Counted from the whole stretch's first letter, positions 5,772 to 62,000 are shown. The stretch: 63,852 bases of DNA, filler included, from Folioceros fuciformis (GCA_049999805.1; 11 parts of 11 records of this genome joined end to end with filler, not necessarily neighbours in it), one strand, 5' to 3'. Notes: generated by a model from the letters alone, not told the origin. Made by a program: numbers and translations.

Positions 5772-8201
5772 ATGGGTAGTAATTCTGGGGAGGGAGGTGG
5801 AGAGGAGGCGAAGGAGGCAGGTTATGATGACTCTCCAATCTTCGACTCGGACGGTAGTGGCGGCCCCGAGGCGGAGCCGATCCACACTGTATCGGAGGCT
5901 GAGAAGGAGCAGGAGGTAGAGGAGCTTGTGGGTGACGGGCAGGGGCCGGGGCAGGCGCATGAGTCTGATAAATCAGGCGACGGGCAAGAAAATGTTGCTG
6001 GAGGTCAGCAGGGTCAGGTTGCTGAGGAGGGTGGGATGGAAGAGGAGGAGAAGGAGAAGGAGGTGGTGAAGGAGAGAGTTGTGACAGGGTTGTCCAGTTT
6101 CACTTTGTTTGGGAATGGGCTGCCCAAGGCCACTGTGGTCAAGACTCGTCCTGAACGATCGTCTGTACCCAAGACGGCGGTTGTGAAGGAGGAAGAGTGT
6201 GCGAGTGGTTTGGTGTCTGCGGAGTTCCAGGCTGCACGGAAATCCCTGTATGAGAGTCTGGAGAAGGCAAGGGAGTTGTCTGCGGCCCTGGAGGCTTCTC
6301 ATGTGCGGCTGAGGGGTATTGGGGAGCGTATACCCAATCTGGAGGCGGCAATGGAGCCCCTGCAGGCGCAGTCGAAGCTGGTGCGGGGCCTGAACGGTCG
6401 CATTGACCGAGCCATGGGGCCTGCTGCAGCTGTGCTGAAGGGTTTTGATAACCTGCACGATTTGGAGGTGGTTTTGTTGGACGGGGTTGGGGAGGATTTG
6501 TTTGGATACCTCACTGCAGTCGCCCGGCTGGAGGATTCGCTTGAATTTCTGGGGAAAAATTGCCCAGTTGCAGTGCAGTGGTTGCAGGAAGCTGTTGATT
6601 TTCTTGGCAAGAGTGCGGTGACGGATAAGTACCGAATGCATAGGCTGAACGAAGCTCTGTCGGTGTTGCGGCAAGCTCAGGCGGCTCCCGAGCAAACGGG
6701 GCTTGATGGCGGGCTCTTGAATTTGGCTCTGGAGCAATTGGAATCGGAGTTCGGCAACATTGTGTTGCACCACAGCACGCCTGTGTCGCTCCCTGAGGCT
6801 GCTCCTGTGGGGACGGAGGAGACTGTCCTGATGCCGCCGGATGTTGTAGAGAAGCTGCAGAGCATTGTGCACAAGCTGTCCGTGAACCGACAACTGGATG
6901 GGTGTGTGGAGGCGTATTGTCAGGCACGTAGCTCCAGTGCCCTTGGGAGTTTGAAGTATCTGGGGGGCGACTACCTGCAGTACTCCACTCCGGAGGTTAT
7001 CAATATGCTGGACTGGAATGACTTGGAAGGGTACATCGGGCTGTGGACCCAGCAGTTTGAGGTGGCAGTGAAGCTCTTGTATGGGCCTGAACGTAGTCTG
7101 TGTGCTCAAGTGTTTGCCAGGGCGGAACCTCATGTATGGCGGGATTGCTTCCTGCGCTTGTCCCAAGCTGGCATGCTCTTGTTTCTGCAATTTGGAGAAG
7201 GAGTGGCACGTAGCCAAAAGACGCCTGAGAAGCTATTCAAGCTGTTGGATATGTTTGAGGCTCTGGAGAATCTCAGCCCGAGCATTGCTGAGGTGTTCGC
7301 AGGTGAGGGTTGCACAGAGATGAGGTCACGGGCAAGGGAACTGCAGAAACATCTGGTGCATGGGTCGTGTCAGGTACTGTGGGAGTTCTCGAGGCAGCTT
7401 CTGGAGGGGCAGACTGAGGGCACTTTACCAGCGGATGGGAGCCATCCTAAGCTTTCGAGTTATGTCATCAATTACGTGAAGTATCTTGTCAGTGAATTCT
7501 ATGGGCCCATCATGGCTCAGGTGTTGAAAATAGAGCAGAGCTGGAGACAAGAGCCGCCGAAGAAGGAGGAGAGGGGGCTTGCTCACGCAGTACTCACCAT
7601 AGTGCAGGCATTGGAGAGGAATGCTGAAGCAAGAGCAAAGGGATACAAGGATCCAGCACTAGCACATATATTTCTCATGAACAACATCCAATACATGTAC
7701 GACAGGTCTAGTAAGTGTGAGCTAGGTGCCTTGTTAGGTGACTCATGGATGAGGGAGCACCGCAGGAAGGTGGAGCAGCATTCTCTGGGTTACCAAAGGG
7801 AAGACTGGGGCAAAGTGCTTGCACACCTCAGCAGAGAGGGATTGCTGGTTTCCAGTGGAGGCAGGGGTGCTGCCCGCGACTTGGTCAAGCAGAGACTCAG
7901 GTTGTTCACGACAGCATTTGAAGAGACCGTTTACAAGCAAAGCAAGTGGAGCATTCCTGATGCCGATCTCCGCAGGGATGTGAGACAAGCAGTGGTGCAA
8001 GTAGTGCAGTCCGCATATCGCAGCTACATTCAGAGCTACGGGTCACTGTTGGATCAGGGGGCAGCAGCCAGTAGGTACCTCAAGTATACGCCTGAAAGTC
8101 TAGAAACTAAGCTGAACGACTTATTCCTTGGGCCTAACAACCTGTACGGGCCTGGTGCCACATCCTCTCGGAACGGAGATAATGGTCCAAACTCATTGTA
8201 G
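5772..8201 (+). CDS. EXO70: Exocyst subunit Exo70, Exo70.3 (G/I-like) clade, with acidic N-terminal extension
   Basis: 809-aa intronless ORF with Exo70 motifs PEKLFKLLDMFE, PADGSHPKLSSYVINY, LAHIFLMNN, WSIPDADLR and YLKYTPESLE. The segments RAMGPAAAVLK, LDGGLL and SREGLL..SGG..ARDLVKQRL resemble Exo70G. Confidence 0.93.
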   Translation: MGSNSGEGGGEEAKEAGYDDSPIFDSDGSGGPEAEPIHTVSEAEKEQEVEELVGDGQGPGQAHESDKSGDGQENVAGGQQGQVAEEGGMEEEEKEKEVVKERVVTGLSSFTLFGNGLPKATVVKTRPERSSVPKTAVVKEEECASGLVSAEFQAARKSLYESLEKARELSAALEASHVRLRGIGERIPNLEAAMEPLQAQSKLVRGLNGRIDRAMGPAAAVLKGFDNLHDLEVVLLDGVGEDLFGYLTAVARLEDSLEFLGKNCPVAVQWLQEAVDFLGKSAVTDKYRMHRLNEALSVLRQAQAAPEQTGLDGGLLNLALEQLESEFGNIVLHHSTPVSLPEAAPVGTEETVLMPPDVVEKLQSIVHKLSVNRQLDGCVEAYCQARSSSALGSLKYLGGDYLQYSTPEVINMLDWNDLEGYIGLWTQQFEVAVKLLYGPERSLCAQVFARAEPHVWRDCFLRLSQAGMLLFLQFGEGVARSQKTPEKLFKLLDMFEALENLSPSIAEVFAGEGCTEMRSRARELQKHLVHGSCQVLWEFSRQLLEGQTEGTLPADGSHPKLSSYVINYVKYLVSEFYGPIMAQVLKIEQSWRQEPPKKEERGLAHAVLTIVQALERNAEARAKGYKDPALAHIFLMNNIQYMYDRSSKCELGALLGDSWMREHRRKVEQHSLGYQREDWGKVLAHLSREGLLVSSGGRGAARDLVKQRLRLFTTAFEETVYKQSKWSIPDADLRRDVRQAVVQVVQSAYRSYIQSYGSLLDQGAAASRYLKYTPESLETKLNDLFLGPNNLYGPGATSSRNGDNGPNSL

Positions 8202-9048
8202 CAGGAACAAGAGTCGCCTACTGTGCTGATTCTTGACGATGAAGTACTTATGTAGATCTGTCAATCAACCGTTCAGTCAAGGATGCCGTCACCAGGTGTG
8301 GCTTTGGTGTCACCAACACCCACACCAGAGAAAAGATTTACAAGACTTGGTGCCAGCGGACTTCCTTTCAAGCAAGACCTCTAATCAAGCCAAAAACCTT
8401 GAATGATCCTATCAGTTTAGCTTCTATCCCTGCAGGTCGAATTCGTGTCGCCAACCCCTGCAGCCGGACCTGTTGGGCCTCAATTGCTGAAAGAGGCGGT
8501 GCTACACCTGAAACTCAAGAAACCAGTGGGAGAGCATCTCATTTCCCTGCGGTTCCTTGGTCTTGAGGTTACGGCCTGTCTCTCTCAATGCAACCGAGGA
8601 TTGAGATGAAGGTTTCAGTTTAGAGTTTAGGGTTAGGCTGCCACCTCTCGGCGCACCGCCTTCTGGCCTCAAAACGTGATGCGGCTCCAGACACAGCCCT
8701 GTCATGCATTGTGCAAATAATATCACGCAAAATAATGCCAGCCCTGGCCGTCTGCAATGGAGGGTCGGGCAGAAAGCTCACCAGGGGTTAGATCAATGTC
8801 ACCAGACAAACCAGGGTGCCTCCGTGAAGAGGGGCACGGGAGCTCACTCACCAACAACTGGTCTTGGATGTTTCCTCCTCCTTTTCTTTTCTTATTCTTT
8901 CGTCGGGGTGAAGATTTATGGCACGGTGGGTTCCACAGACTGAGCGCGACACCATGGCACGAATGTTACGTTATTCATTGAGAAAAAACAGTTCACAGGA
9001 AGCCAGTTTCCCTTGAGGATAAATTAATTTTGACGGTTGGGAAAAGTG

Positions 9049-11024: not shown

Positions 11025-11276
11025 AATCACCCAACCCTATGGCCTGGTACCGAACCTAAACCTTCCCAGGTCTGGGACCAAACCTATACCCACTCTTATA
11101 ACCAAACCAACTATTTCCTGGTCAATTAACCTAATTAGCACAAAGAAAAATAGGAAAAATGATCAGAAAATCAAGGAAAATTAGGAAAAATAAGTTGAAA
11201 AAGAAAACCAAACCATACCACTATTAACCCTTTTTCAACCAAAACAAACTACTACCCCAAACTTTGGAGGTTCACA
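11025..11276 (-). repeat. Terminus of a dispersed element (probable LTR starting TGTGAACCTCCAAAG); other copies start at 29182 (+) and 39824 (+)
   Basis: Near-identical sequence in three contigs, sharing an exact TG boundary and each running into a contig end. Confidence 0.8.
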
Positions 11277-12370
11277 CTACATTAAAGACAAATGCTTAGC
11301 ATGGTGGACTTTTGTTCCTAGAAGCTACTTGGCATCAAGATCCTGAACAATTCCGTCAATTTTTTAGGATGATGCTCACAACTTTCACTTACATTTGCAA
11401 CTTGGTGGCTATTGATCTTACAAGAAAGACTCCGGCACCCCTAAGGCAAATCCCAAACAGACAATTGGTGGTAGACATTCAAGTAGCCCTAGCATTGAGA
11501 CGCCTAGCTATAGGAGACACTTTCAAGTATGTCGGAGAGTTGTTTGGATTAGCTGAATCAATTGCATCAAAGATTGTATGACAATTTGTTCGAGCAATGA
11601 ATAGGAGAGCCAGAAATCTCATATCTTGGCCACAAGGAGAGACACTTGTAGTTACTAAGGCTAAGTTTGAGGAGCACCAAGGTTTGAAAAATTGTTGTGC
11701 TACTATTGATGTTACACACGTGAAGATTGAGCTTATGTCAAGAGAAGTGGCTACAGAATACTTCGATCGAAATCGTGACTATAGTGTCTGCATTCAAGGT
11801 TGTGTGGATATGGAGATGCGTTTCCTGGATATCTTTGTTGGATTTCCAGGATCAATGAACGATGCAAGAATACTGAGCAATTCAGGCTTGTATAAGAAAG
11901 CATTACAAGGTAATATCTTAAATGGGGATTCTGTGACAATGGGAAACTTCAGCATCCGCGAGTATATTGTGGGGGATGCAGGATATCCTTCATTTCCTTG
12001 GCTCCTTACACCCTTTCCTGGAAGGCATATATCTACAGAGAAAGATTATTTCAATTTCAAGCACTCCTCAACATGCATGGTAGTTGAACGAGCTTTTGGA
12101 AAGTTGAAAGGTACATGGAAGATGTTGAGTAGGACTATTTGGAAACCAGACATGGATAGACTATGGGCAATATTACTTTGTTGTTGTTACCTACACAACC
12201 TTCTCATCAATAATGGCGACTTGTCTGCAGACAATGAAGACCATCCTCATGATGTTGGATATCGAACTGTTTCGTGTTTAGCCATGGATGCAGATGGTGA
12301 TAGACTTCGACAGAACATTGCTAGAGTCTTGTGGTCCAGCCATCAACTGGCACATGACATGAGTTCCTAA
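11277..12370 (+). mobile_element. PIF/Harbinger transposase (HARBI1/DDE_Tnp_4-like), degenerate
   Basis: Motifs FRQFFRM, VALALRRLAIG, IDVTHV, GFPGSMNDARIL, YIVGDAGYP and FNFKHSSTCMVVERAFGKLKGTW. One in-frame TGA at 11579-11581; the 5' end is interrupted by the LTR-like repeat. Confidence 0.9.
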
Positions 12371-13013
12371 ATTAAATACCTACAGCAATTTGTCACCTAT
12401 CTTGCTCAAAGCTTCGCCAATTTTCATGAAAGCGGTGACAAGATTTTCATCCGTTGGGAGACACCAACTTCTTACCACAAGGTATGAAGATCTTGTAAGC
12501 AACAAGTCTCTTTAATGTTTACATTTTCCTTGCACTTGACATGCATGTTAGCTTACTACAATTGATTCTTGGAGACCAGGCCCGTAGCACAAGGCTAGGC
12601 CTCATGTTCAAGAGGGTGCCTACAACTTTAACTATGAGGTTATTGTGGTTGCAGACACCCCTAGTTCAACAAGAGAAACATCACATGGTGAAGGTCAACT
12701 CGACCCAATGGAGGAATATTTCCCCTCACCATCTGAATCTTTAAATGCTAATGGCATGGAATCTAACGATCCATCAGTCGAGAATCTTAGGAGTGCAAGG
12801 AAGAAGCGGAAAGTGCTAACAGCAAAACGAGGTGAAGAATTGTTTGCGGGCAGCAGTGCGCCAATACATCGGCACACTTCGCATGACCCGGCTAGAGTGC
12901 GCCGGTATACCGGCGCACTCCCTGCGACTCGTTAAACTACAACTCGTTAAACTGCAACAAACTGGGAACATTTGCAGCAAACATCATGAAATTAAAAAAC
13001 GGAACCCAAAAAA

Positions 13014-14360
13014 CTAATTCGTACCTTGTTTTTGTTTATCTGTTTCATAGCGAATGTTTCTCTTCAGATAATCGCATGTAGTACAAAACGAAAATCTGTT
13101 CGTTTTTGGAATACGCACCTTCGGGAAGTGCGAGGCCCATAGCTGATAGAAGTAAGAGTACAAAATGTTGTATTGTTCTACTCTGCTCATTTGCCGCTTG
13201 TAGTCTATGAAAGTTTCCTCCTTGGTGTAAGAGTCCGGCAAATGGTACAGTTCAACATTTGGCATATGCTCTGCAATGAGGAGAAACAATTGATGCATCC
13301 ATACGCACGTGGCAGCGGCGTACCCTGGAGTCCGTGGCTCAGAGTGGATGGCTCCCGACCAAACAATGTTCCCAACAGCCCGTTCTTTCGCTGCCTCATA
13401 CATGTTTGAACCAATGCAGTACACTCTTTTGAAAGCGTCTCGACAACACCTTATTTTCTCCAACCCAAGTAAGAATGGTTCTGCGATTGGACGTGCGCTC
13501 TCAGTTTTCTCGACATCAAAATGCGCCTGCAAAAAGTTTCCTGCTCTGTCCTACTCATCTTTAGAAAGCGATATCGCAACTCTCTAAATCCCGGTTGACC
13601 TAGCCGTCTCAAACATTGTCTCGCACAACATATTTTTCTATAATCAAGGGAAATGCGAAGCTCTAAACACTTATCCTCTGGTATTGTTGAAGGTCTCTTC
13701 CACCGACATCGTCGATGATCTAGCGGAGTTTTGATTATTGACTCGGACACCGGCTTACAATTAAAGGTCGATCACTGGCTAGGTGTATGTCTGGAGTCTG
13801 AACACTCTTCACTACAACGCCCTTCTTCTATCGCATTTAGTCAATGGTTCACTTCCTGCATATGTGTTCTAGCATCTCGGCCCCATTCTCCTGCGCCGCT
13901 CCCTCCCAAGAATCTACGGACATCAGCGTTCCTCCTCATAGGTGTGGTCTTCATCACTGCGCCCACAAATGAGTGTCACGGAGATGACCGGCCAAGAGAA
14001 CTATGAATTTCGTCTAGAAGACTCAGACGGATTGGTGAGGACCTCAACTCCTCAAACTGATGTGTGGAAAGATGGTCTCCTGGGGATAAGAATCATCTGC
14101 GGATTAGTACAACAGAAGCAAATCAAAGTCATATGAATCCACTTGCCCAAAGCATCGTCCGCTCTTCCTAACCTTCGTCGCTACTCTCTTCACAAGAATT
14201 CGGCATTTTGCCATACGCTGATGAAGGTTCGTTTGCCTCAGATGCATGAAAGTCCAAAGTGTGTGTATACCCTTTGGCTTGGCTGGCTTTCAAATGTGCA
14301 GCGTTGTCACAATACCTCCCCATCAAGTCCAAAAGCTCAGGTGTGTAATGCATTCTGAAC
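13014..14360 (-). mobile_element. Degenerate DNA-transposase N-terminal exon(s), Sola/DUF7869-like family
   Basis: CCARQCL...ELRYRFL...CCRDAFKRVYCIGS...HMPNVELYHLPDSYTK...LWASHFPKVRIPKTNRFSFCTTCD, with a 1-bp frameshift near 13532 and a likely GT donor at ~13024. Clearly paralogous to the copy at 20500-21900. Confidence 0.6.
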
Positions 14361-14898
14361 GTTAGACCAAAAATAGAAGTAGCTGTTCATCGAGAATCGA
14401 CGCAATAAACGACCATCATAACGCTAATTCGATTTGAACGTTTGAGACACAACATAACTACCGATTCAGCCAGAAGCGCCGCCGGATACGACCTGCATCA
14501 CGCTATAAATGAATTGGCGGCTGGTAACAGTGGATGTTCCGTGTCAGCTGAACAGGTCGTTTTCGAAAACTTTCTCGTACAAATCCGGTGATTGGGAACT
14601 TCTTCCACAATAGCTTTCGTCTCCAGAAAACACTGCCTACGGTGCGACTCTTTCTCCATCGTGGTGCACAGGAATGGCGTCTAGTCGTCGTAGCAACAAA
14701 CTTTAGGTTGTCGAGAGGGATGTTGAGGCCCTTCCAAGAGTTCAGAAGCAAAGGAACGCGGGGAAAGCAACTGCGCGAGCTTCATCTGCTCACAACCCCA
14801 ACAGAGATGGACACTGACCTGCACCACTCGGTGGCAAAGAGGCGGCTACTCCCGTTGCCCAGACTGCCGCAGGCAGAAAAGATAACTCAGGTGGGAGG

Positions 14899-16654
14899 GT
14901 GAGAGCATCCAATTCAAAAGCAAGCGAAGGACCTGTGAACCACATTCCAATGACTGTGAATCACGGAGGGAGTACTGGAGGAAGTCAGAATTATAACATT
15001 CCGAATGCCTACAACTTTGTAGAGTGCTTGAGACTGAAGAAGTTAGAAGACAGTCTAGCCAAAAGATTCAACACTGACAAGGAATGGTTTTTGATAGGTA
15101 AAGATGAGCCTGATGACTTCAACTTGTCGTGGATTCCTCTGGTTGCGTTATGGGTGAATGGGTTTCAAGGCTTGGGTTAGGACGAAGCAGGAAGGGCAGG
15201 ATGGATTCTTTGTGCGTCTGTGGACAGGGAAGACGACGAAACTCACTTGAATTTCATCCTTACCAGACACCCACCAAGCCACATTACTGATGACTACAAC
15301 AGCCACAGCTTAGTAGTTTTGAATGTTGCGATCGGCACACTCGGCCCGGCTTGAGGCCGAGTGCGCTGGTAGACCGGCGCACTGAAGACCCGAGCATGCT
15401 ACAGTAGGGTTGATTTGTAGCCAGACTAATTTTCATCATTCTGGTTGCAGAAACTCTCAGAAATTGCGAACTTAGAGTCCCTGCCGAAGCCTTTCCAGGA
15501 TTTTGTGTATTCGGCGAAAAACTGGAAAGGATGGAGGAAGAGAAACAAAAGTTGGTGGCAGCAGATATGGGTGCATGGCTGTCAGATTTTCGAGTTCCAG
15601 CAAGTAACTCGAAGGTGAAGTACCAGGTGATTCAACAAAATGTGCTTGAAATGAAGGCATTCCTTGTCAAGCGACCATACACCCTGCTATTTGCAGATCT
15701 GCCTCGAGGCTTACAGCGACACGAGTTTGACAAGCAGTTGAAGGTGGCGGATTTGGAAGACATGGTCCGAGGGTTCAGTAAATGCACCTCGAGCAATATT
15801 TATAGGGTTATCCTAATGCACGGAGTGGACATGATTTCGTAAGCCAGGGAGGCCCCGCGGCCATGGTGCAAGAAGGGGAGCATCCAGACTTTAGTATGGG
15901 AGAAGACGAATATACCCCCGAACGCAGGAGTAGTTGAAACAGTGGAGTATATCATTGTTGAAAGTGCAGTGCACATGGAGGCTCAAGAATCAAAGGCTAC
16001 ATTGTTCGCGAATCACGGATTTCTGCTCCCAAGGGTTATCAGGCACGGAGCGGTGGTGAAGAAGCACTTGTTTCATTCAGCAGATGCGCATGTCGTCTCG
16101 CCTTACCAAAACCATTGGGCTTGATGCGAATGCTGATTAACATGTTTCCGTGTGAGGAGGACTGGGAGGTGGATGCATGCGCAGGGTCTAGTTCTTTGCT
16201 CCAAAGTGCGGTGCAGGGTGGAAAGCATGCAATTGCGATTGATGTGGATGTGAGGTGCACATCCTATATCATGCAGCGGATTATTGGGCTAGGGTCCTTG
16301 CCAGATGCAGATGAGGAGATAACCACGGAGTCTTTTACACGAGGCCCATCAAAGTTTTGGGCGACGGAAGTGTGCTGAGATGGGACCGTCGATCGCAAGC
16401 TGATGGTCTTAAGTATGTTGGGCAAGAAAGGAGAGGTTATACATCAGATTGATGATAGGCCCGCGGAAGACCTATACGCCATCACTGTCTGGGATGAGAA
16501 TTGCACTCTGCCGCCTCAAACTACAGAGGACCCAAACTTCTCGGTGCTTCGGGTGGGTGCCGATGACTTTGCAGAAACTGATGCGCATCGTTTGCATGAT
16601 TTGGATGTGGTTGTGGACTCTGAAGCGAACCAGGATGACCCTGTTTTTGTTTAG
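14899..16654 (+). pseudogene. Beta-class N6-adenine/N4-cytosine DNA methyltransferase-like gene (N6_N4_Mtase fold), disrupted
   Basis: Motifs occur in beta order: YTLLFADLPRG (motif IV position, 15696), LVWEKTN...VEYIIV, SPYQKPLGLMRMLI (after a 1-bp loss at 16108-16111), VDACAGSSS (motif I, 16172) and AIAIDVD (motif II). In-frame stops at 15840 and 16376. Confidence 0.72.
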
Positions 16655-17388
16655 GGTCGAGACTTCACTTAATTTGAAATTTGTTGTCACGAAATTTAAA
16701 GTACTTTTGAAGCCTTCTTTTGCTTAATAGACAATTTCCAATAGATGTCTTGGCCGCTCAAAGGATGCTGACAGTTGTTATTAATTTTCTTCCAGTCTTG
16801 AGAAAGACTATCCCACTTGCTCTTAGCTTGGCTAGGTGTGCAAGCTACATCATTCACCTTGCAATAACTGGCTACCTCTTCCCACCGTTCTATAGCCTTC
16901 TTGTTCTTCTCCCTATATTGCCTGCTAGCATTCTAGCTTCATGGTCTAGTTTTTGGGCAGCTTGCAAAACGTGAAGCGCCTACACCGTTCAAAGTTTCCT
17001 AGGGGCCTTAAATGCTTAATTGGTAGAGGGGGCTTGAGGGACACTTGGAGCTATAGGGACATGACATACAACAGATACACCAACTGGTGTAATTGTGGGT
17101 CTACTACTACTAGCAAATGTTGGCAATGCTAATGGAAGGGACAATGGATAAGAGCTAGGAGGAACATTAAAAAGTAGGGCAGCAATTCCTATAGATGCTA
17201 GGTGCTGGCCATGGGTTGCCTCTTCAATCGTGTTTGAAGATCGCTGGAAGAGAAGACCACCTGTGCTAGTGGACCTGCACCAATCCGTTATGTACTACGT
17301 TACAACACAGCCAGCGGTAGTGAAAGCCAAGAATCACGTGATACCTAGGATTACAGGGTTTGCTTGTGCCTACACGCTCTGATCCGGG

Positions 17389-17490
17389 CAAGGCAAGGTC
17401 TTCTCCGAGCTTGCACGCTCTTCTCCAAGCCCGCACGCTCTTCTCCTGGCTTGCACGCTCTTCTCCAGGACTGCACATTCTTTGCCAAGC
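17389..17490 (+). repeat. ~20-bp tandem repeat (CTTGCACGCTCTTCTCCAAG-like, ~4-5 copies) in probable LTR sequence
   Basis: Direct inspection; lies next to a PBS-like AGGTATCA on the minus strand near 17340. Confidence 0.6.
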
Positions 17491-18370
17491 TGCGAGGAGT
17501 GCGAGGAGTGCAAGATGGCTCCAGAAAACGCGCCAAAAATCTACCAGCGAAGGCCTATCCCTTGCCACGGTGGTGTCCAGCCGAGGTAAAAAACACCGAA
17601 AGTTTCGCTAGAGGTGGGTTTTCGCGCTCATTACGGGAGTTTGCAGCAACTTCCCCTCTTTGCGGAACATTTTTGGCGTTATGCATAGGTTTGGCAATGT
17701 CAGAAATTCAGCCGGAAGTGAAAGAACATGGGACCAGATGTGAAAAAATATACTGGTCTTGTAAAATGGGGAACAAAGGAAACCCCCACCGTGGCGCAGA
17801 CACGCGCCACATGCGCTAAAAATGTACCTGGCTTGTGAAACCGGCCTCAGCTTGCTGCCTGATTGGGTAAAGGAGAGAGCGCGGAGACAGGAACTCGATT
17901 ATGTACGAATATCATAGTGTGGCTGTGAAAGTTCATCTCCCAGAATTCAAAGTTGTCGTTGAACACACGAGCCACTGGGCAGCTACGTGGCCAGAAAAGC
18001 CCGGGCTGCTCAGGCGCCCGCCCATGCACGCCAGCAGGAAGTGGAAGTCCCATCAAGTACCGATAATTTGTATAAACTCTAAATATAACATTATATAATA
18101 TAATAATATAATACAATAAGACAAAACAGAACGGTGAGCATTTTATGCCACAGTTCCCGTCTGTGATCCATTTTCCTCTAAACCAATGAAAACAAGCAAG
18201 GCAGCATCAGGTGTGACACCTCTTATCTTGTCCCTCAGCTCGTACGAAACGAGGCAGGCAACCGAAGGCGNNNNNNNNNNNNNNNNNNNNNNNNNNNNNN
18301 NNNNNNNNNNNNNNTTAATTAATTAANNNNNNNNNNNNNNNNNNNNNNNNNNNNNNNNNNNNNNNNNNNN

Positions 18371-19866
18371 CCTCAAACATGAACTGTACTCTCCAGTGGC
18401 TCGAACTTCAACAGTAAGATTTCTACTTGCTCTAATTGCTGAGCTTAATCTAGAGATTGAGCACATGGATGTCACCACAGCATTCCTCTATGGCAACCTG
18501 GAAGAGATGATCTATGTTAGCCAACCTCAAGGGTACGTGCAAAAGAAGCAGGAACGGAAAGCTTGCAAATTACTCAAGGCCCTATACAGTCTCAAACAGG
18601 CTCCAAGAGCGTGGTATAACAGAATCAATGCTTACAAACTGTCTCTTGGGTTTGTCAATGCAGACTCCGATCCTAACATGTACGTCTTGTTGAATGACTC
18701 TGGCATGGTCATAATTGCGTTATACGTAGACAAGCTAATGGTTGCTGCAACCAGCAAACCACTCATGACAAACATTAAACAGAAGCTTGCAGAGGAATAC
18801 AAAATGAAGCAGCTTGGTGACCTAAGTTATTGCTTAGGTGTTCAGGTGGATAGGAATAGAACCGCAGGCACAATCATCCTACACCAAGCAAAATACATAC
18901 ATGACATTTCAGTTCGCTTTAATCTTGAGAATGCGAAACCTATGAACACGCCCCTGGCAATGGGAGCTAAGCTCACGTCAGATGATCAGCCCACAACAGA
19001 ACAGGACAAAAAAGACATGGAGTCTATCCCCTATAAAGCTGCTCTGGGATGCTTGATCTACCTGAGTGTTTGGACTCAGTACGACATCAGTAAAGCTACT
19101 CAAAAGGTAGCTCAGTTTTCGCAAAATCCTGGTAGAGTCCACTGGTCAGCCATGAAGCGCATCTACAGATACCTGCTAGGAACAAAGAACCTCAGTGTAA
19201 CCTATAAATCTTCAAGCTCCTCAAGTCTTAAACTGCTGGGGTGGTCAGATGCAGACTGGGCTGCTAATCCCGATTCTTGAAGAAGTGTAGCATCATTCGT
19301 CTTTGCCCTTGTTGAAGCGGCTGTTTCGTGGTCTTGTAAGCTCCTGCCAACCATCTATCTGAGCTCAACCAAGAGCGAGTACGGGGCGCTCACAAGAGCA
19401 GGCAAAGAGGCGGTCTCAGGGCGTGCTACATTGGCAAGACTACACCAGTCCTAGACAGAAGCCTACGCAGCGTCAGACAAAGGTTACCACAACCTCCAAT
19501 CTGTGAGGATCTCAGCGAATTACGATCGTGGTGGTGTCAAGGAGTTAACAAGTTCCATCGACGGTTGAACTTTCGAAGACAACCGAAACAAGGATCGGCT
19601 GAGTGGGAGTGTTAGATTAGGTTTTGAGCAGCCTTATCCAAGTTATTTAATTAGGGCTTGTTCGTTTGACACTCTAGATAGTATCTCACTGGTCACGTCT
19701 TTAGGAATTGCCTGTTCAAGTCACAACGGTTTGGTTGGGCACCGTACCCCTAGTTCTCACCACGGGATCCTTTCTTAATTCATCTTTGTTTTCATCTCTA
19801 TCGAACTTCCCACGTTCACGGCCTATTCATTGAATCCCTTGACCACCTCATGCAAGAACATCAACA
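18371..19866 (+). mobile_element. Ty1/Copia RT-RNase H fragment with PPT and 3' LTR from 19610
   Basis: MDVTTAFLYG, KALYSLKQAPRAW, ALYVDKL and GWSDADWA; PPT GAGTGGGAG followed by TGTTAG. The LTR end at ~19866 is tentative. Confidence 0.88.
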
Positions 19867-20499
19867 TATGATCGGATAAATAATCCTACTTCTTGTGTTG
19901 GAGGAAGCATAGGAGCCATTTGGCTAGGCCTAGGAACTGAGCAGACGCCATCTCGCGCGTCAGCTAGCCGTTGGCCTCTCGCCCTATCGCTGCCTTGAAC
20001 AATGTTGTTGTTGCTGCCACCGTACTTCGCTTCCACAGGGATTGGATTACAATTCCTCCAGCTTCCTCCAGGCTGCGCCCATACACCACTCTAACCAAGT
20101 CCAGGTCCCAGTCCTGTGGTTTGCCCCGTATTCCTCCCATCGGCACCTTAACCCGCAGCTGCTGTGCACACTCTCGCACCAGGCTCGGGTTCGCATAGTT
20201 CCATCGCTTTGTCATGAACCCGAGACCCAACTGCTCTACTAGTTCACCTGCCCGGACCCTCCAGTGGTTCATGTTGGGCTAGAGAGCATCCTCGACTTGC
20301 ACCATAGGTCTGGGTGCGATGCTCCTGCAGGGATCAACCGCCTTTAGCTCAACTAATGACCCTGCCATCCATCGCCACTCCAGGGTTAGCTTGCGCTGGC
20401 ACCACCACCTATCCTGCTCCTCACAACCTCGCGCTTCCTCGATCCGATCAGGAGATGGACACTGTCCCGCGTCCGCTGCCTCCTCCCTGGTCACCATGT

Positions 20500-21900
20500 T
20501 TAGCTTGTACGCCTCCTTCAGCAATAACCCCTCGTAGGCATAAATCACATCCTGTATTATGTGGATTGTTAAGTTTGTATCATTATGTATATTGGGAAAG
20601 TTTACGTAAACCTTTGTCTGCATGCCTATATTGTAGACGAGACACCCAACCACATGAAAGCGAATAATCCCCTCAGCAAAATCCTTTGGGGGACCTGGAA
20701 AATGAGGCAGCTCTATCTTGCTTTGATCCATTGCATTGATAGCCATCCCCATATACTGGATGGGGCGGCCTTGACATTTCAATTGATGTTTTCCGAGCTT
20801 TTCTCGCTTGGCCTTGATTTGTGCTCGGTGGTCGCGTAGCTATCCTTCGAGGGCTTTTGGCGATTCACAGAGAGAACAACGTCCGAACCATTTGCCGCCG
20901 ACATGCTACCAATTCCCGAAGGGCCCTCACCCAACCCCCCACACATATACAAAAGTATGTTTTCTATAGAGCACAAAAATAAGAATGAGAAACATTGGTT
21001 AGTCCAGCAGTGCAAACCTCACACTTGTACTCAAGGAAAATTTTGCCTTTTGTATATGAGTCAGGTAGATGGAAGATCGATGCATTCGGTAGTCTCTCAG
21101 ACGTTAGCTTGAAGAAATGATCCATCCAGGCCAAACACTCAAGGATGTGGTTCTCTTTTGAATGACATCTTCTATTCAGTTTAGATGACCATGGAGCATT
21201 ATGCAATACACGGCTCTTCAAATCTTGGTACCTTTCTGATCCAATACAAAAAACCTTCCGAAAGCTTTCGAGACAGCATGCGACCTTCTCCTCACCGATG
21301 ACACAAATGGAAACTGATCGCATTTAACCCAAACCAGTCTTCGCCTCCAATAACCCTTCCAAATACAGTTCTTGTTGTTCCCTGGCCAAAGTTAGAAATC
21401 GGTATCGCAATTGCTCGATATATTTCTTCCCAATCTTCAACAAGCATTCATTGTTGCAATAATGAGATTCCTAAGCTCTCTGAATCAGCCTTGGAACACA
21501 TAGCTTCTTTGCTCAAACATGCGGATTGGGCACGTAAGGCTCTTCGTCTTTGAGGACTTGGATCCTTCAAGCTCTCACTGGCCACGCGTTTTGCTAAGTC
21601 GTCTCCATTGATGGCTTCAAGGAGCTCACCTCTTCCTCCTACATGCGCTCCGCCATCACTCCCAGTCTCATGCATGCCTTCCTCGAATAATCTTCTATGT
21701 CACGATTGCGGTTCAGCATCGTTCTTAGAGTCTGAGCTGTTCCAAACCTTGCTTCGACTTGAGCTTGAACTTCCTTGATGCGGAAGGCCTCCATCGATCT
21801 TTGACGCGCGCACCGGCGTTGTGTTGACAACCTTCACACTTGGGAATGTCGTCTGCTCCAGCGTTGTGTTCAAAACTCTACGACTCAATCTGCCAACAAC
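20500..21900 (-). mobile_element. Second degenerate copy of the Sola/DUF7869-like transposase, including the start of the catalytic region
   Basis: QLRYRFL, CCLESFRKVFCIGS and HLPDSYTK match 13014-13750. It continues into INAMDQSKIELPHF...FHVVGCLV...HNDTNLTIHII; broken by stops and an internal replacement. Confidence 0.62.
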
Positions 21901-27160: not shown

Positions 27161-29181
27161 TGTAATGCTAATAAATACGGAAGCGTGCTTGTAAGGAAAG
27201 CATTAATTAATAAAAGGAAAGTGTCCTTTAAGTACAAAACTGAATGTGTCTTTTGAGTTATGTAATTAACCTCTAGTCTAGTAACTAGGGTATAAACTAT
27301 GTTAGGGTTTCATGCCTAACACTCCCACTAAACCAACATGGTTTATACGACCATAGGTTTGAACTTATAATCATCGTATACCATTATGTCCCAGCTACTC
27401 TCAGTAACGGGGTGTACTTCCAACGTACACAGCGTGGACCTCCTGACTGCCTTCCGTATATGCTGAGCTTGCTTCCTGATCAGTAGAACGATTACGCGCG
27501 CAAGCCTGATGACGAAGACAAGCTATGGAGCATCACACAGCGCAAGCCCTCCTCAAAGTCCTCAGCACATCAATATGAAGAGTGCTAGCAGCACTGGCGG
27601 GAGCGGAGCACGCGGACGGTCTGTAACAGGAAAAGCAACATTGCACGCAATTGAGCCTACGATGGGCGCTCTCCCACTTGATGAGCGCCTTCCAGTGAGG
27701 GCTCTGCCGCCAGCTCCGATCATAGTTGAGCTAGAATCCTATGAGCCTGAGCCCGACATGACCAACATCAACCCTGTCGCCAACACCACTGACGATGACT
27801 CAAATGCTATGGAGAGCTTCCCTTGTCGTCAAGTCGGAGCTGGAGGAAGGGCTCCCATTGCATCTGTGTTGGAGCGGCAAGTTGCTGCTGTCATAGCAAC
27901 CTTGACTGAAATGGAGGCCCTGCTGGACGTGAAGAGGGCTGAGGTGACCCGACAGCAAGCAGCCCTGGTAAAGGAAGCCGTGAATAGAGCAACAGCCTCC
28001 GCCGACAGAGCCTTTGACGACATAGAGGTCGACAGAGCTAGGAGGAACCATGACTGTAGCGTGTGTGCGCATAGAAGCTGTCTTTGCCCCCTGTGTGGGA
28101 AGAAGCTATACAAGGTATGTAATTTCCTACCTAATCCTATTCCATGCCATGCCTGCGACTCAATTTAAGCTTTACGCTTCATCCACCAGTCATGCATGTA
28201 CTGTGTTCTAACCCAAGACCTGATCTACCTCTGCAGGATGGCTAAGAGCATGAAGTTGTTCCTCGTCACAGCAGTGGCAAGAGCCACTAAGGTGAAGACC
28301 CAATGTGTGGATAGCAATGTGCTTCAGCTTTAGCCATAGAACTAACTAGGATAGTTAGTCTGCTTCCATAGGATAGCTAAACTCTTTCAGACCTAAGGCA
28401 GCCATATGCTGGAAATGTTTGGCCTTTGGGGCCCTTTTGTGAATATGTCTGCAGTGTTGAGATGAGTATTGATATAATGTACCTTGATAGCCCCTCGTTT
28501 TGCAACGTCCCTAATATAATGGTGATAGAGCTCTATGTGCTTTGTACGAGCATGAAAACGGGGATTAGACACGAGAGCTATAGCGCTCATGTTTTTACAA
28601 TGCAGCATAGTTGGTTCTTTCTGTGTTTGGTTCACTGACTCCAGAAACTGCCGTTGCCTTTCAGCCTCCTTGCAGGCATTCGTGAGCGCTTTGTACTCAG
28701 CCTCCGTAGAGGAAAGGGCAAGTGAAGTCTGCTTTTTGCAACTCCAATTGATAGTTCTAGAGGCCAACAAGCAACAATAAGCTGACAGGCTCTTCCTGGT
28801 GCCAGCATCTGATGCCTAGTCAGCATCAGCGAACGAGATAAGTTCAAGCCTATTGCTCCCATTGCCTGTAGCCCATAGGATGCTGTACCCTTAAGATAGC
28901 GATAGATCCTTTTCATGGCTGCCCAATGTTGTGACTTAAGAAACTGTGACACCATGGACACAAAGTAACTGATATCTAGTCAGGTCCAATTTACTGGATA
29001 TATCAAACAACCGACTGCCTCTGCATATGGGATAGCCTGCATGTCCACAAGCTCTTGTGCATTCTGAGGAGACATGGCAGATCTTAACTTCTCCCCCACT
29101 ACAGAGGGAGTGGCTACCGGTTTAGCCCCATCCAGGTAAAACCTCTTTAGTATCTCTTTTTTATACTTTGTCAAGTGCAGG
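27161..29181 (-). mobile_element. Copia 3' half (RT-RNase H, PPT, probable LTR 27161-27321) with an internal antisense ORF
   Basis: PYAEAVGCLIY, HWAAMKRIYRYLKGT, ALSSTEAEY and HARTKHIELYHH; PPT AGTGGGAG then TGTTAGG on the minus strand. Confidence 0.85.
27509..28168 (+). CDS. Antisense ORF inside the Copia 3' region: coiled-coil plus Cys-rich motif, probably spliced (donor 28115, acceptor 28236)
   Basis: 219-aa ORF with CSVCAHRSCLCPLC followed by AAG|GTATGT and a later CTGCAG; the putative second exon has stops. Confidence 0.45.
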   Translation: MTKTSYGASHSASPPQSPQHINMKSASSTGGSGARGRSVTGKATLHAIEPTMGALPLDERLPVRALPPAPIIVELESYEPEPDMTNINPVANTTDDDSNAMESFPCRQVGAGGRAPIASVLERQVAAVIATLTEMEALLDVKRAEVTRQQAALVKEAVNRATASADRAFDDIEVDRARRNHDCSVCAHRSCLCPLCGKKLYKVCNFLPNPIPCHACDSI

Positions 29182-29835
29182 TGTGAACCTCCAAAGTTTG
29201 AGGTAGTATTTTGTTTTGGTTGAAAAATGGTTAATAGTGGTATAGTTTGGTTTTCTTTTTCTACTTCTTTTCCCTAATTTTTCTTTATTTTCTGGTCATT
29301 TTTCCTATTTTTCTTTGTACTAATTAGGTTAATTGACTAGGAAATAGTTGGTTTGGTTATTAAAGTGGGTACAGGTTTGGTCCCAGACCTGGGAAAGTTT
29401 AGGTCCGGTACCGGGCCATAGGGTTGGGAAAGTTTGAGTCTAGGTCTAGTGATTAGTTAAATATTAATTAAATATATATTATTAAATAATAAAATAATAA
29501 TCGAATAATATTAAATAATAAAATAATAATCGAATAACATTAAATAATAAAATAATGGTATGAACATAGGAACGGGAATATGTGGGGTATGTCAGTGTCA
29601 GGGGTCAAGCTGGCTGATTGCCTGGCTGGCCTGAACGGTCAGGGAGGCCGTGCCCTAGCTAGGGCTAGAGGTAGGGGTTGCGGCCGCCCCCATCCCCCTC
29701 CCCCTTTCTCCCTTTCTCCCTTCCTCCTCCATTCCNNNNNNNNNNNNNNNNNNNNNNNNNNNNNNNNNNNNNNNNNNNNTTAATTAATTAANNNNNNNNN
29801 NNNNNNNNNNNNNNNNNNNNNNNNNNNNNNNNNNN

Positions 29836-38900: not shown

Positions 38901-39986
38901 AAAGAGTCACATAGACATAATACTTAAACATTTTTTGTATTATGTTTTTATTATCAATCAAGTCACAAAAGCTCAAGCAAGTTATCTTGCTTCTACTCAA
39001 GAATTTACTTGTTGGCCGAGCTAATTCATATACTTCATGTAACTGATAATGATTCAGCTATATCATGCAGATGTCCAATAGTCAAGTGTAGGCAAAGTTC
39101 TTGAAATCATCATTGAAGACCCTATACCAGATTTCTGTGAGAGAAGCCCAAGTTGGCGTTCCAAAATGTTGAAAAATAGCCATCCATGTGTATGCAATGA
39201 TTCTGAAGGTATGAATGAGAGCAGCTAATAGTCGAAGTGATGCCCGAAGCTTGATGAAATATTCCTTATTTTTTCTGTTGGCAATATAGACAATATAGAA
39301 GTGGATGGAAAAAGGAAGAGAAAACTTTATCCAAAAGCCGGTGATACTTCAAGTAAGCCATGTCCTTGCCTCCTAAAATTTTCCTTACCCCTGTTTATTT
39401 TTTTTTATTCATATATTAATATATTTTTGTTCCATAAATGACAGTTGATAAATGCATTGGAACTCCCTCGATTAACATATCAACTCCCACTAAGTCCATT
39501 AACTAGATAGGTTACAACATCCCTATAGGATCCATGCCAAGTTGTAACCCAACTAGTATAACTTACCTAATCTGTTCTGGCAAAGAGAATGATGCTCGTA
39601 TCCCTTGAACCTATAAATGCATTAGGATTGGGTTACACATGCTATGGATCAGGTGTGAACCTTGTAAGGAATATGAAGGCCACATGAGACACTCTTACTA
39701 TAAGTATCCTAGGCATTAAGTTTACCACTTAATTTGAATCTCTAGTTTCATATCTTATGGTGTGTGTATACTCAAGTTTTCTTTATGAAACCAAGTTCAA
39801 TATGGGTCTTACATCTAGAAAATTGTGAACCTCCAAAGTTTGGGGTAGTGGTTTGTTTTGGTTGAAAAAGGGTTAATAGTGGTATGNNNNNNNNNNNNNN
39901 NNNNNNNNNNNNNNNNNNNNNNNNNNNNNNTTAATTAATTAANNNNNNNNNNNNNNNNNNNNNNNNNNNNNNNNNNNNNNNNNNNN

Positions 39987-58998: not shown

Positions 58999-59045
58999 CC
59001 TAACCCTAACCCTAACCCTAACCCTAACCCTAACCCTAACCCTAA
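58999..59045 (+). repeat. Telomeric repeat (CCCTAA)n at contig start
   Basis: CCTAA plus 7 perfect CCCTAA units, C-strand first, as at a left chromosome end. Confidence 0.93.
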
Positions 59046-62000
59046 AAAAAACTCTAATACTTTATTTTTACTACTCTATAATACTACTATAATATATACT
59101 AGCGACTTAAAATCTATAGTATATTACTACTAGATACTCTTACTTATATTTCTAACTACTATCTATCTACTTCTATACTCTTCTACTTTCTTAATTTTAT
59201 CTATTTTCTCTTTAACTCTAATTTTAACTTTACTTATAGAAACTTTCTTTATTTTATATACTCTTTAGTAATACTTTACTTATAAAGCTCTTTTCTAATT
59301 TAAGTAAGATAGAAGTAGATAAAAAAGTACTATAGTTTAGTATTTTATTATTAACCTACTCTATAAACTAGTTCTATAGAATAGCTAGAAACTAGTTATA
59401 CTACTATATAAATACTAGCTTATAGAGTCTTTTAGATACTTTCTTATATATATTATAGATTATACTATAGAACTAGTTAAAATAGGTATAGTAGTATTAT
59501 ATATATACTTAGCTATCTTAATCTTAATATATAAAGATGTTAATATTCTTACTATAGTAGTAGTAACTAATTATATAAGCTAGAGTAATAAACTACTATA
59601 TAGGTATATTATATAATATACTAAAGTAGTATTATATCTAGTACTAAAACTAGTCTATATTTACTTAATATAATACTTCTTACTTATAGTATTCTCTAAC
59701 TACTTATATATTTTACTATTTCTTTACTACTTATATACTCTTCTTCTCTAATAAGTCTATCTAGATACTATTATTATTAGTTTTATTAAGTAATTATTTA
59801 GCTTTTACTATAGTAATAGATTTATTATTATTAGTATTAGTATTAGTATCTATCTTACTATTAAGAAACTTATTATAGTAGTAGTAGATACTAATAAGAT
59901 AAATATACTTTTTTAATACTAATATCTTAGTAGTAAAGTTATATACTTTACTAAAGCTCTACTTTAATAGTAAGAGCGTAATAAAAACTATAGGTATAAG
60001 AAATACTAGCTATATTTTATTTTTAACTATAGTTTACTCTATTAGAGTTATTTAGAAGTAGTAGTATATAGTCTTAATATTAGTAGCCTTAATACGCTTA
60101 TATTAAATATCTACTATTAGATATAGTATTTTATCTATCTTAAGGCTCTTTATTAGATTCGTCTATACTATTTATTAGTAGTTAGTTATAGAGAGTATCT
60201 TTAGATATACCTAGCTTTTTTCTAGAATATAGTAAAAAAAGAGAAAAATCTTTTATATATATTCTATATAGTTATTATTAAAGTTTTAGTATAGCTCTAG
60301 TAGGCTAAAGAGAATATACTCTTAGTCTTTTTATATTACTAGAATATAACTAAATCTAGATATAGTATTAGTTATATTTTACTATAAGTAAGTAGTACTC
60401 TTTACTTATTACTATAGAAACTAGAGTAAGAAGTTACTATTACTACTTAGTAGTTATATATAGAATAGTACCTCTATTTATAATAAGCCTTTAAAGACTT
60501 CTAGAAAGTAGATATATTATAGCTATAGATTTATATTAAGTTTAAATACTAAAGAAATATTAAAAATCTATTTATTTTTCTTTTACTTTACTTATATATT
60601 AGCCTCTATAAGCTATCTCTCTAGTTATTCTATATTAGATAGTATATCTTTATAGCTTTTATTAGTATTAGATATATTAGTAATTAGTAGTAAAGACGTA
60701 GTAATTATAGTTATAGTACTATACTTAGTTACTTTAGTTAATAGTAGATTTACTTTAAAATAACGTAATATATTAGATAACTTACTACTATCTAGTCTCT
60801 TATTTAACCTAAAATATTACTAGCTAATAATATATTTAATATATAGTAGTAACTAGTTACTTTTCTTTAACTTACTTAATATATTTACTAATATAAGCTA
60901 ATATTTATTATAAAGGTAGTTTTATATATTATCTACCTATCTTTTACTACTATAAATATATCTATAATAGATATATTTTATAAACTTATATTAAGATAAA
61001 ACTAGAAATATAGATAGTAGAGAGCTATTATTATAAATAAATATAAAGTTTATAAAGAATTATTTTAGAGATAACTTTAAGCTAAGTTTATTTAGCTTTT
61101 ATTAAACTTTAAACTACTTAATTCTTTTACTTTAACTTTTATAAGCTTAGTTTCTAAAGTATTAGATTATATTAGCTAAGAGAAGAACGTAGTAGTATAA
61201 GATATAGAAAATAATACTAGATTTTTCGTTAATAGATATAAGCTTTAATAGAGTAGATATAGTATAATATAATATAAGTATATATTTAATAGATAAAGAT
61301 AAATATAGAATATATAAAATAATATTCTCTTTAATTTTAATCTATAAAGTATAATAAAATCTATTTAACTTAATAATTCTTAATTCTTTTCTAAATACTT
61401 TATTAGTTCTTTTTAATATACTCTATTAGTTATATTCTTATATTTTAATATTCTATTATACTAGATACTATATATTTAGACTATTTTAATCTCTATATAG
61501 GCTAAAACTAGGCTATATTTATATATAGCTACTAATCTTATTTAAATTAGATTCTATATTAGTTTAACTTATAAAGAAAGTTAGTAGTAAAATATAGTAT
61601 TACTCTTACTTTCTTCTCTTCTTATTTTATCTACTTTTTTATTATTTTATCTTCTTCTTCTTTTTAGTTTAATTTTTTTCTTTTATTACTTCTCTATATT
61701 TTTTAATTCTAGTATTATTATCTTTCTAACTATAACTCTACTATACTATTACTTATCTTTAAGATAGTACTAAAGCTATAATATAATTCTAAAGATACTA
61801 AAGCTTTAACTAAAATTATATATAATATTCTTTAATCTAACTTTATACTATATAGAACTCTACTTAATAATAAAGATAGTTTTTCTATCTTTATTATCTA
61901 TAGTCTAGATACTATACTAACCTAGATATATACTTATATTAATAAGTTCTATAAGAAAAGCTAATATATAACTATATAGAAAAGTAAAGTAATCTATATA

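Follow-up and report, generated by a model that had tools for sequence, protein, structure and literature searches.

A decayed repeated element in a land-plant assembly that probably joined a DUF7869 gene to a permuted amino-methyltransferase-like gene

The window analysed here, a stretch of 63,852 nucleotides from Folioceros fuciformis (GCA_049999805.1), consists of unplaced contigs joined by 10 linkers of the form N44-TTAATTAATTAA-N44. One of these contigs (11025-18270, 7246 bases, bounded by linkers on both sides) carries a repeated block in which a decayed transposase-like gene on the minus strand diverges from a decayed methyltransferase (MTase)-like gene on the plus strand. The original prediction had described the two genes as a head-to-head unit, a DNA transposon carrying a bacterial-type beta-class N6-adenine/N4-cytosine (N6A/N4C) DNA methyltransferase. 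The peptides quoted for that gene are present where they were placed, as are the two stops and the 1-bp slip. The features of the block are listed below; the pieces named there are matches of the family hidden Markov model (HMM) described in the next paragraph.

12853-12920, no strand: palindrome pair P1/P2, an imperfect palindrome at 12854-12878 and a perfect 26-nt palindrome, GAGTGCGCCGGTA/TACCGGCGCACTC, at 12895-12920.
13014-14386, minus strand: decayed N-terminal Cys-rich part of a DUF7869-family transposase-like gene, in pieces in three frames with several stops.
14818-15354, plus strand: upstream open reading frame (ORF) of unknown family, in the position of the relatives' gene B, with a TAG at 15178-15180.
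15321-15342 and 15359-15384, no strand: palindrome pair P3/P4, about 70 nt ahead of the point where the homology to MTases starts.
15414-15839: HMM piece, E 4.8e-24.
15430-15615, frame +1: HMM piece, E 0.0029.
15452-16378 (possibly to 16654), plus strand: predicted beta-class (PF01555-type) amino-methyltransferase-like pseudogene, from the family HMM and motif alignment.
About 15529-15537, plus strand: break, a frame change upstream of where the reading of the original prediction starts.
15695-15709, plus strand: motif IV, D-L-P-R-G.
15840-15842, plus strand: break, TAA.
15843-16121: HMM piece, E 8.4e-5.
About 15897-15911, plus strand: WEKTN block.
15962-16375: HMM piece, E 7.4e-19.
16098-16120, plus strand: motif X (SPYQ/KP), crossing the frame change.
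16108-16111, plus strand: break, a one-base frame change in an A-run.
16172-16195, plus strand: motif I, degraded to DACAGSSS, then GKHAIAIDVD.
16376-16378, plus strand: TGA, a break or the natural stop.
16379-16654, plus strand: open tail of 91 codons behind the TGA, within the repeated block by contig cover.

To collect relatives of the plus-strand gene, HMMER was run exhaustively over 1.84 billion representative sequences, with the N-terminal piece of the window gene as the query and a threshold of E <= 0.001. The search returned nine proteins. P0004, a 1006-residue internally repetitive protein matched in 9 short stretches, was dropped, and the other eight were kept as relatives (31-38% identity); all eight come from unannotated Logan or ENA assemblies, and none from curated proteomes. 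A family HMM built from these eight, with the window excluded, was searched against all 2444 six-frame pieces of the window and matched just four of them, all collinear. Therefore, the plus-strand gene is a true member of the family, and 15452-16378 is, as judged from sequence, what decay has left of one member of a small protein family resembling permuted (beta-class, PF01555) amino-methyltransferases. A word-based protein search with the C-terminal piece of the window gene gave no match. In the PDB, the only match of that piece was the Thermus methylase TTHA0409 (E 0.18), and the N-terminal piece had none.

The class of the family was assigned from the relatives. PF01555 was above the cut-off of 26.7 bits in all four relatives having the C-terminal half (50.1, 30.0, 47.3 and 30.5 bits), and the methyltransferase gene of a metagenome locus described below, L016, scored 33.6 bits. 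In the window itself, the C-terminal piece alone stayed under this cut-off (19.4 bits, E 1.1e-3), and the N-terminal pieces had no Pfam match. Among PDB sequences, the family profile matched M.RsrI (2.2e-8), TTHA0409 (1.3e-6), CcrM and the DpnA-type M1.HpyAVI (1.7e-5) and N4CMT (6e-4), with M.MboIIA also matched. An AlphaFold2 (AF2) model of the relative P0002 had a predicted template modelling score (pTM) of 0.70, and a Foldseek search with it retrieved CcrM (1.8e-10), then M.MboIIA, M1.HpyAVI, N4CMT, M.RsrI and M.PvuII, over 257-292 columns; the methyltransferase fold of the family is shown by this predicted model of P0002. The phage DNA-MTase families phrog_67 (1.7e-18) and phrog_498 (2.1e-14, residues 69-312) of PHROG were also matched, and a word-based search that started from the family alignment found nothing further beyond P0017 and the ordinary bacterial MTases P0018 and P0019, which read DPPF and DPPY. 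In the alignment, DLPRG of the window, D[IV]PYG, the viral DLPYF and the canonical DPPF/DPPY fall in the same motif IV columns, with PYQKP and D-x-C-x-G-S-G downstream. The collinear HMM matches, the motif alignment and the fold match of P0002 show, at the level of sequence homology, that the family consists of beta-class N6A/N4C MTase homologues with the motif order IV ... X-I-II, as had been proposed.

The consensus catalytic tetrad of this class is (D/N/S)-P-P-(Y/F/W). The window and five of the eight relatives (P0001/P0011, P0002, P0003, P0005 and P0008; 31-55% identity) depart from it and read D-L-P-R, followed by G. The remaining three have D-I-P-Y/F-G or D-A-P-Y-G, and the five complete MTase ORFs of the metagenome loci, all intact, have D-(I/V)-P-Y-G-F, so that the first residue of motif IV is D in all members. 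Since DLPRG is common to five of the eight relatives, DLPR is not a product of decay in the window copy; it is conserved in the window's subfamily, and the original prediction's view of it as a reason to doubt the activity of this particular copy has to be given up. If any D-x-P-Y member is active, N6-adenine would be a likelier target than N4-cytosine, because the first motif residue is D and not the S of N4C enzymes such as DN4MT1 and N4CMT. The DLPRG protein, in which Arg replaces the stacking aromatic residue, would be less likely to act as a standard writer than as a partner that binds S-adenosylmethionine (SAM) or DNA, or as a re-tooled enzyme.

Motif I is intact in the relatives (DGCSGSGS, DMCSGSGT or DLCCGTG, i.e., D-x-C-x-G-S/T-G), and therefore the SAM-binding motif has been lost in the window copy only. 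The relatives terminate 0-30 residues past an LPDxxEEI motif that matches the window's, and the TGA at 16376-16378 may thus be the natural stop of the gene. Reading through this TGA gives a weak likeness to the tails of P0003 and P0017, and the tail at 16379-16654 is either a read-through C-terminus of the methyltransferase-like gene or a separate piece. The methyltransferase-like gene is interrupted by two frame changes and by one or two premature stops, its motif I is degraded, and the transposase-like gene lacks its catalytic half; the window copy is dead and without a function of its own.

Metagenome contigs were scanned with the family alignment, which yielded seven loci (six from one data set; 23-54% identical to the query); L021, at 23% identity, was left out of the locus analysis. 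The gene order in these loci is gene A of unknown family, gene B resembling the helix-turn-helix (HTH) of ParB, and the methyltransferase gene M, all on one strand, and then a convergent DUF7869 gene. The DUF7869 gene lies 335-470 nt downstream of M in L015, L016, L018 and L020, which are four of the six loci and all four that can be assessed, as the contigs of L017 and L019 end 305 and 360 nt past M. Gene B is upstream of M in all five loci that reach that far, and gene A upstream of B in both that do. Gene B matched HTH_ParB with E 8.6e-4, under the cut-off, and Spo0J with E 0.22 over the same GHxRxL stretch; no 2-oxoglutarate (2OG) oxygenase domain was detected in it by Pfam. The N-terminal extension of the DLPRG relative P0010/P0011 resembles the C-terminal half of B (E 9e-7), and therefore the adjacency of B and M holds in the DLPRG subfamily, too. 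The ratio of nonsynonymous to synonymous changes (dN/dS) was 0.12 for M in the only usable pair (synonymous sites were saturated in eight of the ten pairs, and the remaining pair had an implausible dS of 25) and 0.08-0.11 for the DUF7869 gene. The low dN/dS values and the intact ORFs indicate that M and the DUF7869 gene are kept by selection in these relatives. The linkage of the methyltransferase family with DUF7869 genes is thus conserved. The proposed link to a transposase was borne out insofar as a transposase-like gene accompanies the methyltransferase in a repeated element, although the gene in the window has no catalytic half; the two-gene head-to-head unit was not, since the intact relatives combine an A-B-M cassette with a convergent DUF7869 gene.

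The upstream ORF of the window (14818-15354) was considered as a candidate for gene B and rejected. Its pairwise E values were 1.7 against B and 0.41 against P0010, and a likeness seen by eye, 'W-x-x-G-F-Q-G', was not supported. At 15177/15178, where its TAG begins, all 16 contigs of run X1, 7 of X2 and 6 of X3 (runs described below) read other letters.

Viral sequences were compared at 14 loci. The part shared with the family was the C-terminal 50-70 residues of the methyltransferase only (residues 250-320), and no DUF7869 gene was found on any of the 14. The closest viral look-alike among the sequences seen is L001 at 7476-8216, on a 363-kb IMG/VR contig, with DLPYFG as motif IV and DGCMGSGST as motif I.

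The minus-strand gene of the window was connected to DUF7869 through the locus L020, whose intact 672-residue protein matches DUF7869 (PF25273) with 169.4 bits and E 8.9e-50. Window positions 13062-13301 correspond to residues 2-81 of this protein (40% identity over 80 residues, E 5.6e-17, and 1.4e-19 in another search). The gene stops at 13014, just past a C-x-x-C stretch and before the point where the DUF7869 domain starts in relatives. This explains why no Pfam family was matched in any of the three frames of 13014-14388. No Pfam match was obtained in 12000-13015 on the minus strand, and no part of the DUF7869 domain itself was found on the contig 11025-18270. A word-based protein search with the 178-residue transposase-like ORF gave no match, and a language-model look-up with the minus-strand gene returned eukaryotic hypothetical proteins only. 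The Atlas clusters nearest to the L020 protein are eukaryotic DUF7869 proteins, with Streptophyta and Mollusca commonest. We found no paper on DUF7869 under that name. A D...D...(GHTHDQID) spacing can be seen by eye in the L020 protein, and this spacing, together with the dispersed, multi-copy nature of the genes, suggests that DUF7869 proteins may be DDE transposases. The family is represented once more in the window, on another contig:

20279-21458, minus strand: second, diverged relic of the DUF7869 transposase-like family, 36% identity at 20952-21458, E 2.6e-24.

This relic shares 50% identity with residues 143-263 of the L020 protein over 121 residues and reaches into the start of the DUF7869 domain, with E values of 1.4e-4 (20282-20839) and 6.1e-4, under the cut-off. 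No methyltransferase-like neighbour of it was detectable in the window. It adjoins a Copia reverse transcriptase fragment at 18371-19280.

The palindromes provide a further feature common to the window and the metagenome loci. In the window, P1/P2 marks the left margin of the repeated block, about 95 nt past the truncated end of the transposase-like gene, and the outer arms of both pairs are alike (GAGTGCG...CGCACTC); no match to the palindrome pattern is expected by chance (100 shuffles). In the metagenome loci, palindromes of 26-40 nt occur in every spacer, including the spacer between B and M, as at P3/P4; examples are GAATGTGAGGAGCGAGAC-N3-GTCTCGCTCCTCACATTC in L019 and the CCGATC-N-GATCGG type in L016. 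The numbers of palindrome cores are 16 in L016 (all outside coding sequence), 7 in L019, 5 each in L015 and L017, and 3 each in L018 and L020. The presence of palindromes in these spacers indicates that those of the window are part of the element. The idea that they are a separate small repeat was dropped because the metagenome loci share them; by the same analogy, a gene spacer is now a likelier place for the hairpin at 15359 than an intron of one long gene. The hairpins were also considered as Helitron 3' ends, but in our own reading the letters behind them lack CTRR followed by T. One palindrome core of L020 (2600-2700) falls inside the otherwise intact DUF7869 ORF, at about residues 95-145, in a stretch without a counterpart in the window paralogue; it may represent an in-frame intron or a small insertion.

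The copies of the block were studied with DNA runs that bear the same organism label, whose contigs were mapped to the window contig at 80% likeness. Inside 12961-16590, 14-17 distinct X1 contigs lay over single places, compared with six at 12740 and one at 17149, and the summed depth was 59-440 inside the block and 14-47 beyond 16833, contigs and depth not being copy numbers. At the right edge, summed depth falls from 191-333 in 16349-16590 to 52-95 in 16591-16832; at the left edge, nine X2 contigs stop fitting just behind 12921. Many differences from the window are common to most contigs. Some contigs lead from 12923 to 16380 and from 13011 to 16424 across 7-8 filler letters, as copies with internal deletions would. 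These observations show that the block exists in many diverged copies in one genome. Run X4, which we guess to be RNA, gave no cover over 12961-16590. In run X3, from the same sample as X1 and X2, C>T was found at 415 places and G>A at 321 over 11025-18270, other changes numbering 12-64 each; this excess is the pattern that a bisulfite-type library would give.

The block is flanked by genes of another transposon superfamily:

11300-12370, plus strand: PIF/Harbinger transposase relic (DDE_Tnp_4) in the left flank, Pfam E 8.2e-30.
16696-17301, minus strand: Myb/SANT-like (Myb_DNA-bind_4) ORF in the right flank, E 1.9e-5, 25.4 bits, under the cut-off of 27.

A Myb/SANT-like gene is the usual second gene of Harbinger elements, and the repeated block therefore sits between two Harbinger genes, an arrangement suggestive of nested insertion or rearrangement. 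One X4 contig spans 16728-17288, over the Myb/SANT-like ORF, downstream of which four tandem 20-nt units of the GCACGCTCTTCTCC... type are found at 17393-17492. In contigs from X1, X2 and X4, 12441 is linked to 12846-12849 with a change of strand, and in other copies the piece 12659-12846 comes after the Harbinger gene in reversed orientation. These strand changes suggest that the left edge of the block was inverted or otherwise rearranged. Contig ends also carry a 248-nt repeat (11030-11277, also 29181-29428 and 39824-39886), whose contig depth in the DNA runs sums to 80,000-158,000; probably, this is a satellite or a dispersed repeat of very high copy number at which the assembly breaks. Neighbouring contigs carry a PLS-type pentatricopeptide repeat (PPR) gene with an E motif and genes for a class III peroxidase, Exo70 and a cytochrome P450; the PPR, peroxidase and Exo70 genes identify the host as a land plant. 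The contig 58999-62373 begins with a telomere repeat of the TTAGGG type, (CCCTAA) x 7.8, behind which the DNA is very AT-rich, with a GC content of about 18-37%. The usual land-plant telomere repeat is TTTAGGG, and this contig may come from another organism in the assembly.

Together, these results make it probable that 12853-16654 is a dead, rearranged copy of a repeated element which joins a DUF7869 gene, presumably encoding the DDE transposase of a transposon group that is widespread among eukaryotes, to a permuted amino-methyltransferase-like gene of phage ParB-MTase ancestry. Several results weigh against this interpretation. For the DLPRG subfamily, the locus context consists of the window locus alone. 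There, the gene order is divergent, unlike the convergent order of the intact relatives, and an HMM of gene B found nothing better than E 3.5 in the window; because of the divergent order and the missing B-like gene, the block is perhaps not a unit but a fragment left by rearrangement. Pfam lists DUF7869 as a domain of unknown function, the L020 protein has no match among PDB sequences, and its AF2 model is unusable (predicted local distance difference test, pLDDT, 30.7; pTM 0.17). The evidence for copies counts contigs and depth. Furthermore, an extra A in the run at 16108-16111 occurs in just three contigs of each run (in X1, 32.7 out of a depth of 170.7), most contigs sharing the frame change of the window. 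It follows that the copies arose when the gene was already broken, or that something else amplified them. Finally, the terminal inverted repeats (TIRs) and target site duplications (TSDs) sought at the block ends, as a transposon would lead one to expect, did not appear: the best left-right alignments scored 19 and 27, nothing above shuffles (mean 18.7, maximum 30).

If the element worked as has been proposed for algal ParB-like/PF01555 systems, the ParB-like protein would bind the element's palindromes and bring the MTase to the element's own DNA. The MTase of D-x-P-Y members might then write N6-methyladenine on element DNA, and this mark could keep the element out of silent chromatin or time its transposition. 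We also put forward, tentatively and as a broader proposal that may well prove wrong, that land plants harbour DUF7869 transposons with a phage-type ParB/MTase module and their own palindromic sites, and that the DLPRG subfamily has long kept the fold with an Arg in place of the base-stacking aromatic as a 'pseudo-methyltransferase'. If this is true, the DLPRG protein might read specific sequence or counteract silencing at the palindromes of the element; it might be a non-catalytic partner of a host enzyme in the style of METTL14-METTL3, or instead an enzyme with new chemistry.

Other origins of the block have to be weighed against a dead DUF7869-MTase element. It could be the relic of a virus-like or episomal element, in which ParB and the MTase would form a phage or virus module, the DUF7869 protein would act as an integrase and the palindromes would serve regulation or partition as such sites do in viruses. 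This would agree with the PHROG phage MTase families being the best named matches, with the nearest viral MTase (L001), whose motifs IV and I read like those of the family, with the parS-like sites that a ParB-type HTH implies, and with the compact, intron-poor metagenome loci, their same-strand genes and the palindrome arrays in every spacer. However, no capsid, polymerase or packaging genes were seen on the 2-5 kb metagenome contigs, and the viral likeness is limited to MTase residues 250-320, with DUF7869 on none of the 14 viral loci. The nearest DUF7869 Atlas clusters are eukaryotic, as for genes of dispersed transposons, and the same accessory genes occur in bona fide algal Plavaka, Mutator, Zisupton and Sola1 transposons. 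We therefore consider a virus-like origin unlikely.

It is quite improbable that the two genes are chance neighbours or captured fragments, i.e., two unrelated decayed repeats amplified as passengers of a Harbinger or a hairpin-ended (Helitron-like) element. The block does lie between the Harbinger transposase relic and its Myb-like gene, but its cover is above that of the Harbinger flanks. GC-rich hairpins mark its edge and the joins 12923-16380 and 13011-16424 contain filler letters, which would suit passengers of this kind, yet no Helitron CTRR-T end follows the hairpins, and the palindromes are common to the metagenome loci and do not belong to a foreign element. The transposase-like gene being a fragment that ends at an exon-like boundary, and the frame change being common to most copies, would also suit captured pieces; the linkage of the two families in all four assessable, independent loci elsewhere argues against it. 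That the family is a domesticated host gene, with DLPRG a conserved plant cellular protein and the window a pseudogene near a transposase relic by chance, is very unlikely despite the conservation of DLPRG and fold across five relatives of 31-55% identity and the strong purifying selection on the sister subfamily, considering the 14-17 diverged contigs over the locus in one sample, the origin of all eight relatives from unannotated assemblies, as expected of repeat-borne genes, and the DUF7869 linkage in the sister subfamily.

The DUF7869-MTase element can be set beside published systems, which are compared here through the accessible portions of their sources. The closest are the red-algal Plavaka (EnSpm), Mutator and Zisupton transposons, which carry PAG1 of unknown function, PAG2 with PF01555 and SET domains, and PAG3 with a ParB-like domain and a 2OG oxygenase, adjoining tandem inverted repeats (bioRxiv 10.1101/2025.02.11.637652). 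Like this cassette, our element as seen in the metagenome loci has a PF01555 MTase, a putative ParB-like protein, an unknown gene and inverted-repeat arrays beside the accessory genes (with two palindrome pairs in the window); in both, most copies are degenerate and the module appears to move between transposase superfamilies. It differs in its land-plant host, its DUF7869-type carrier, an MTase without SET, a ParB-like gene without a detectable 2OG domain and the DLPRG subfamily, genes A and B being compared with PAG1 and PAG3 by description. Sola1-1_Ec32 of Ectocarpus encodes a 1104-residue accessory protein combining ParB-like and N4C/N6A DNA MTase parts, opposite to the transposase (PMC12477816). 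The two systems share an MTase accessory gene on the strand opposite to the transposase gene and a proposed role in self-binding and self-modification; in Sola1-1_Ec32, however, there is one fused protein in a 21.5-kb brown-algal element, whereas here the genes are split and the loci compact, in a plant host. DUF7869 might conceivably correspond to a Sola-type transposase. Because algal transposons with ParB-like and PF01555 accessory genes are already in print, the kind of element is known, and eukaryotic cases are less confined to a few, such as those of rotifer and Marchantia, than the original prediction had held.

Mobile elements are also known to carry other DNA-modification enzymes. TET/JBP enzymes, for example, are carried by fungal KDZ/Plavaka elements. 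Dam-type MTases are carried by retrotransposons (bioRxiv 10.64898/2026.05.21.726589), and DIRS1 keeps an inactive MTase domain (PMC4738411). All of these resemble our element in combining a mobile element with a DNA-modification enzyme or its relic, but, as far as the accessible texts describe them, the enzymes are Dam/alpha-type or PCIF1-like MTases or dioxygenases, and the carriers are mostly retroelements.

Among permuted PF01555-type enzymes of prokaryotic origin in eukaryotes, Marchantia DN4MT1 has TSPPY as motif IV (bioRxiv 10.1101/2021.02.12.428880), and the bdelloid N4CMT (PDB 8s9m) is the product of a host gene, with S-P-P-Y and a chromodomain (PMC8885841). N4CMT was described in the accessible part of the same paper as having no eukaryotic homologues, and eukaryotic PF01555 enzymes were treated there as rare host acquisitions. 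The present family belongs to the same permuted type; unlike these two host genes, which have S first, it has D first, lacks a chromodomain, is multi-copy and linked to a transposon, and its profile is nearer to the N6A enzyme M.RsrI (2e-8) than to N4CMT (6e-4). Land plants are said to have few N6A- or N4C-type DNA methyltransferases, and Iyer et al. list no such clade there in the part of their paper available to us (PMC4738411). With the phage and bacterial beta-class MTases (M.RsrI, CcrM, M.MboIIA, M1.HpyAVI and the ParB-MTase fusions phrog_67 and phrog_498), the family shares the fold, the permuted order, the P-x-QKP of motif X and the D-x-x-x-G-S/T-G of motif I. It departs from them in a motif IV without the first Pro (D-L/I/V/A-P), in the Arg that replaces the aromatic in the window's subfamily, in a motif I with Cys for the bacterial Phe (D-x-C-x-G) and in its eukaryotic, repeat-borne context.

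As far as our searches of the literature reach, supplements excepted, the land-plant host, the DUF7869 carrier, the split genes without SET or 2OG and the conserved Arg-substituted loop are new. The value of the locus is that it leads to the family. Three parts, namely the D-x-P-Y sister proteins, gene B and the palindromes, make up a small set open to direct tests in vitro, and DLPRG is a case in nature in which one can ask how a transposon benefits from an MTase fold whose standard catalysis has probably been lost. Compared with the algal systems, the family would extend the 'self-binding, self-modifying' accessory module of transposons to a land plant, to a further transposase family and to a split-gene form.

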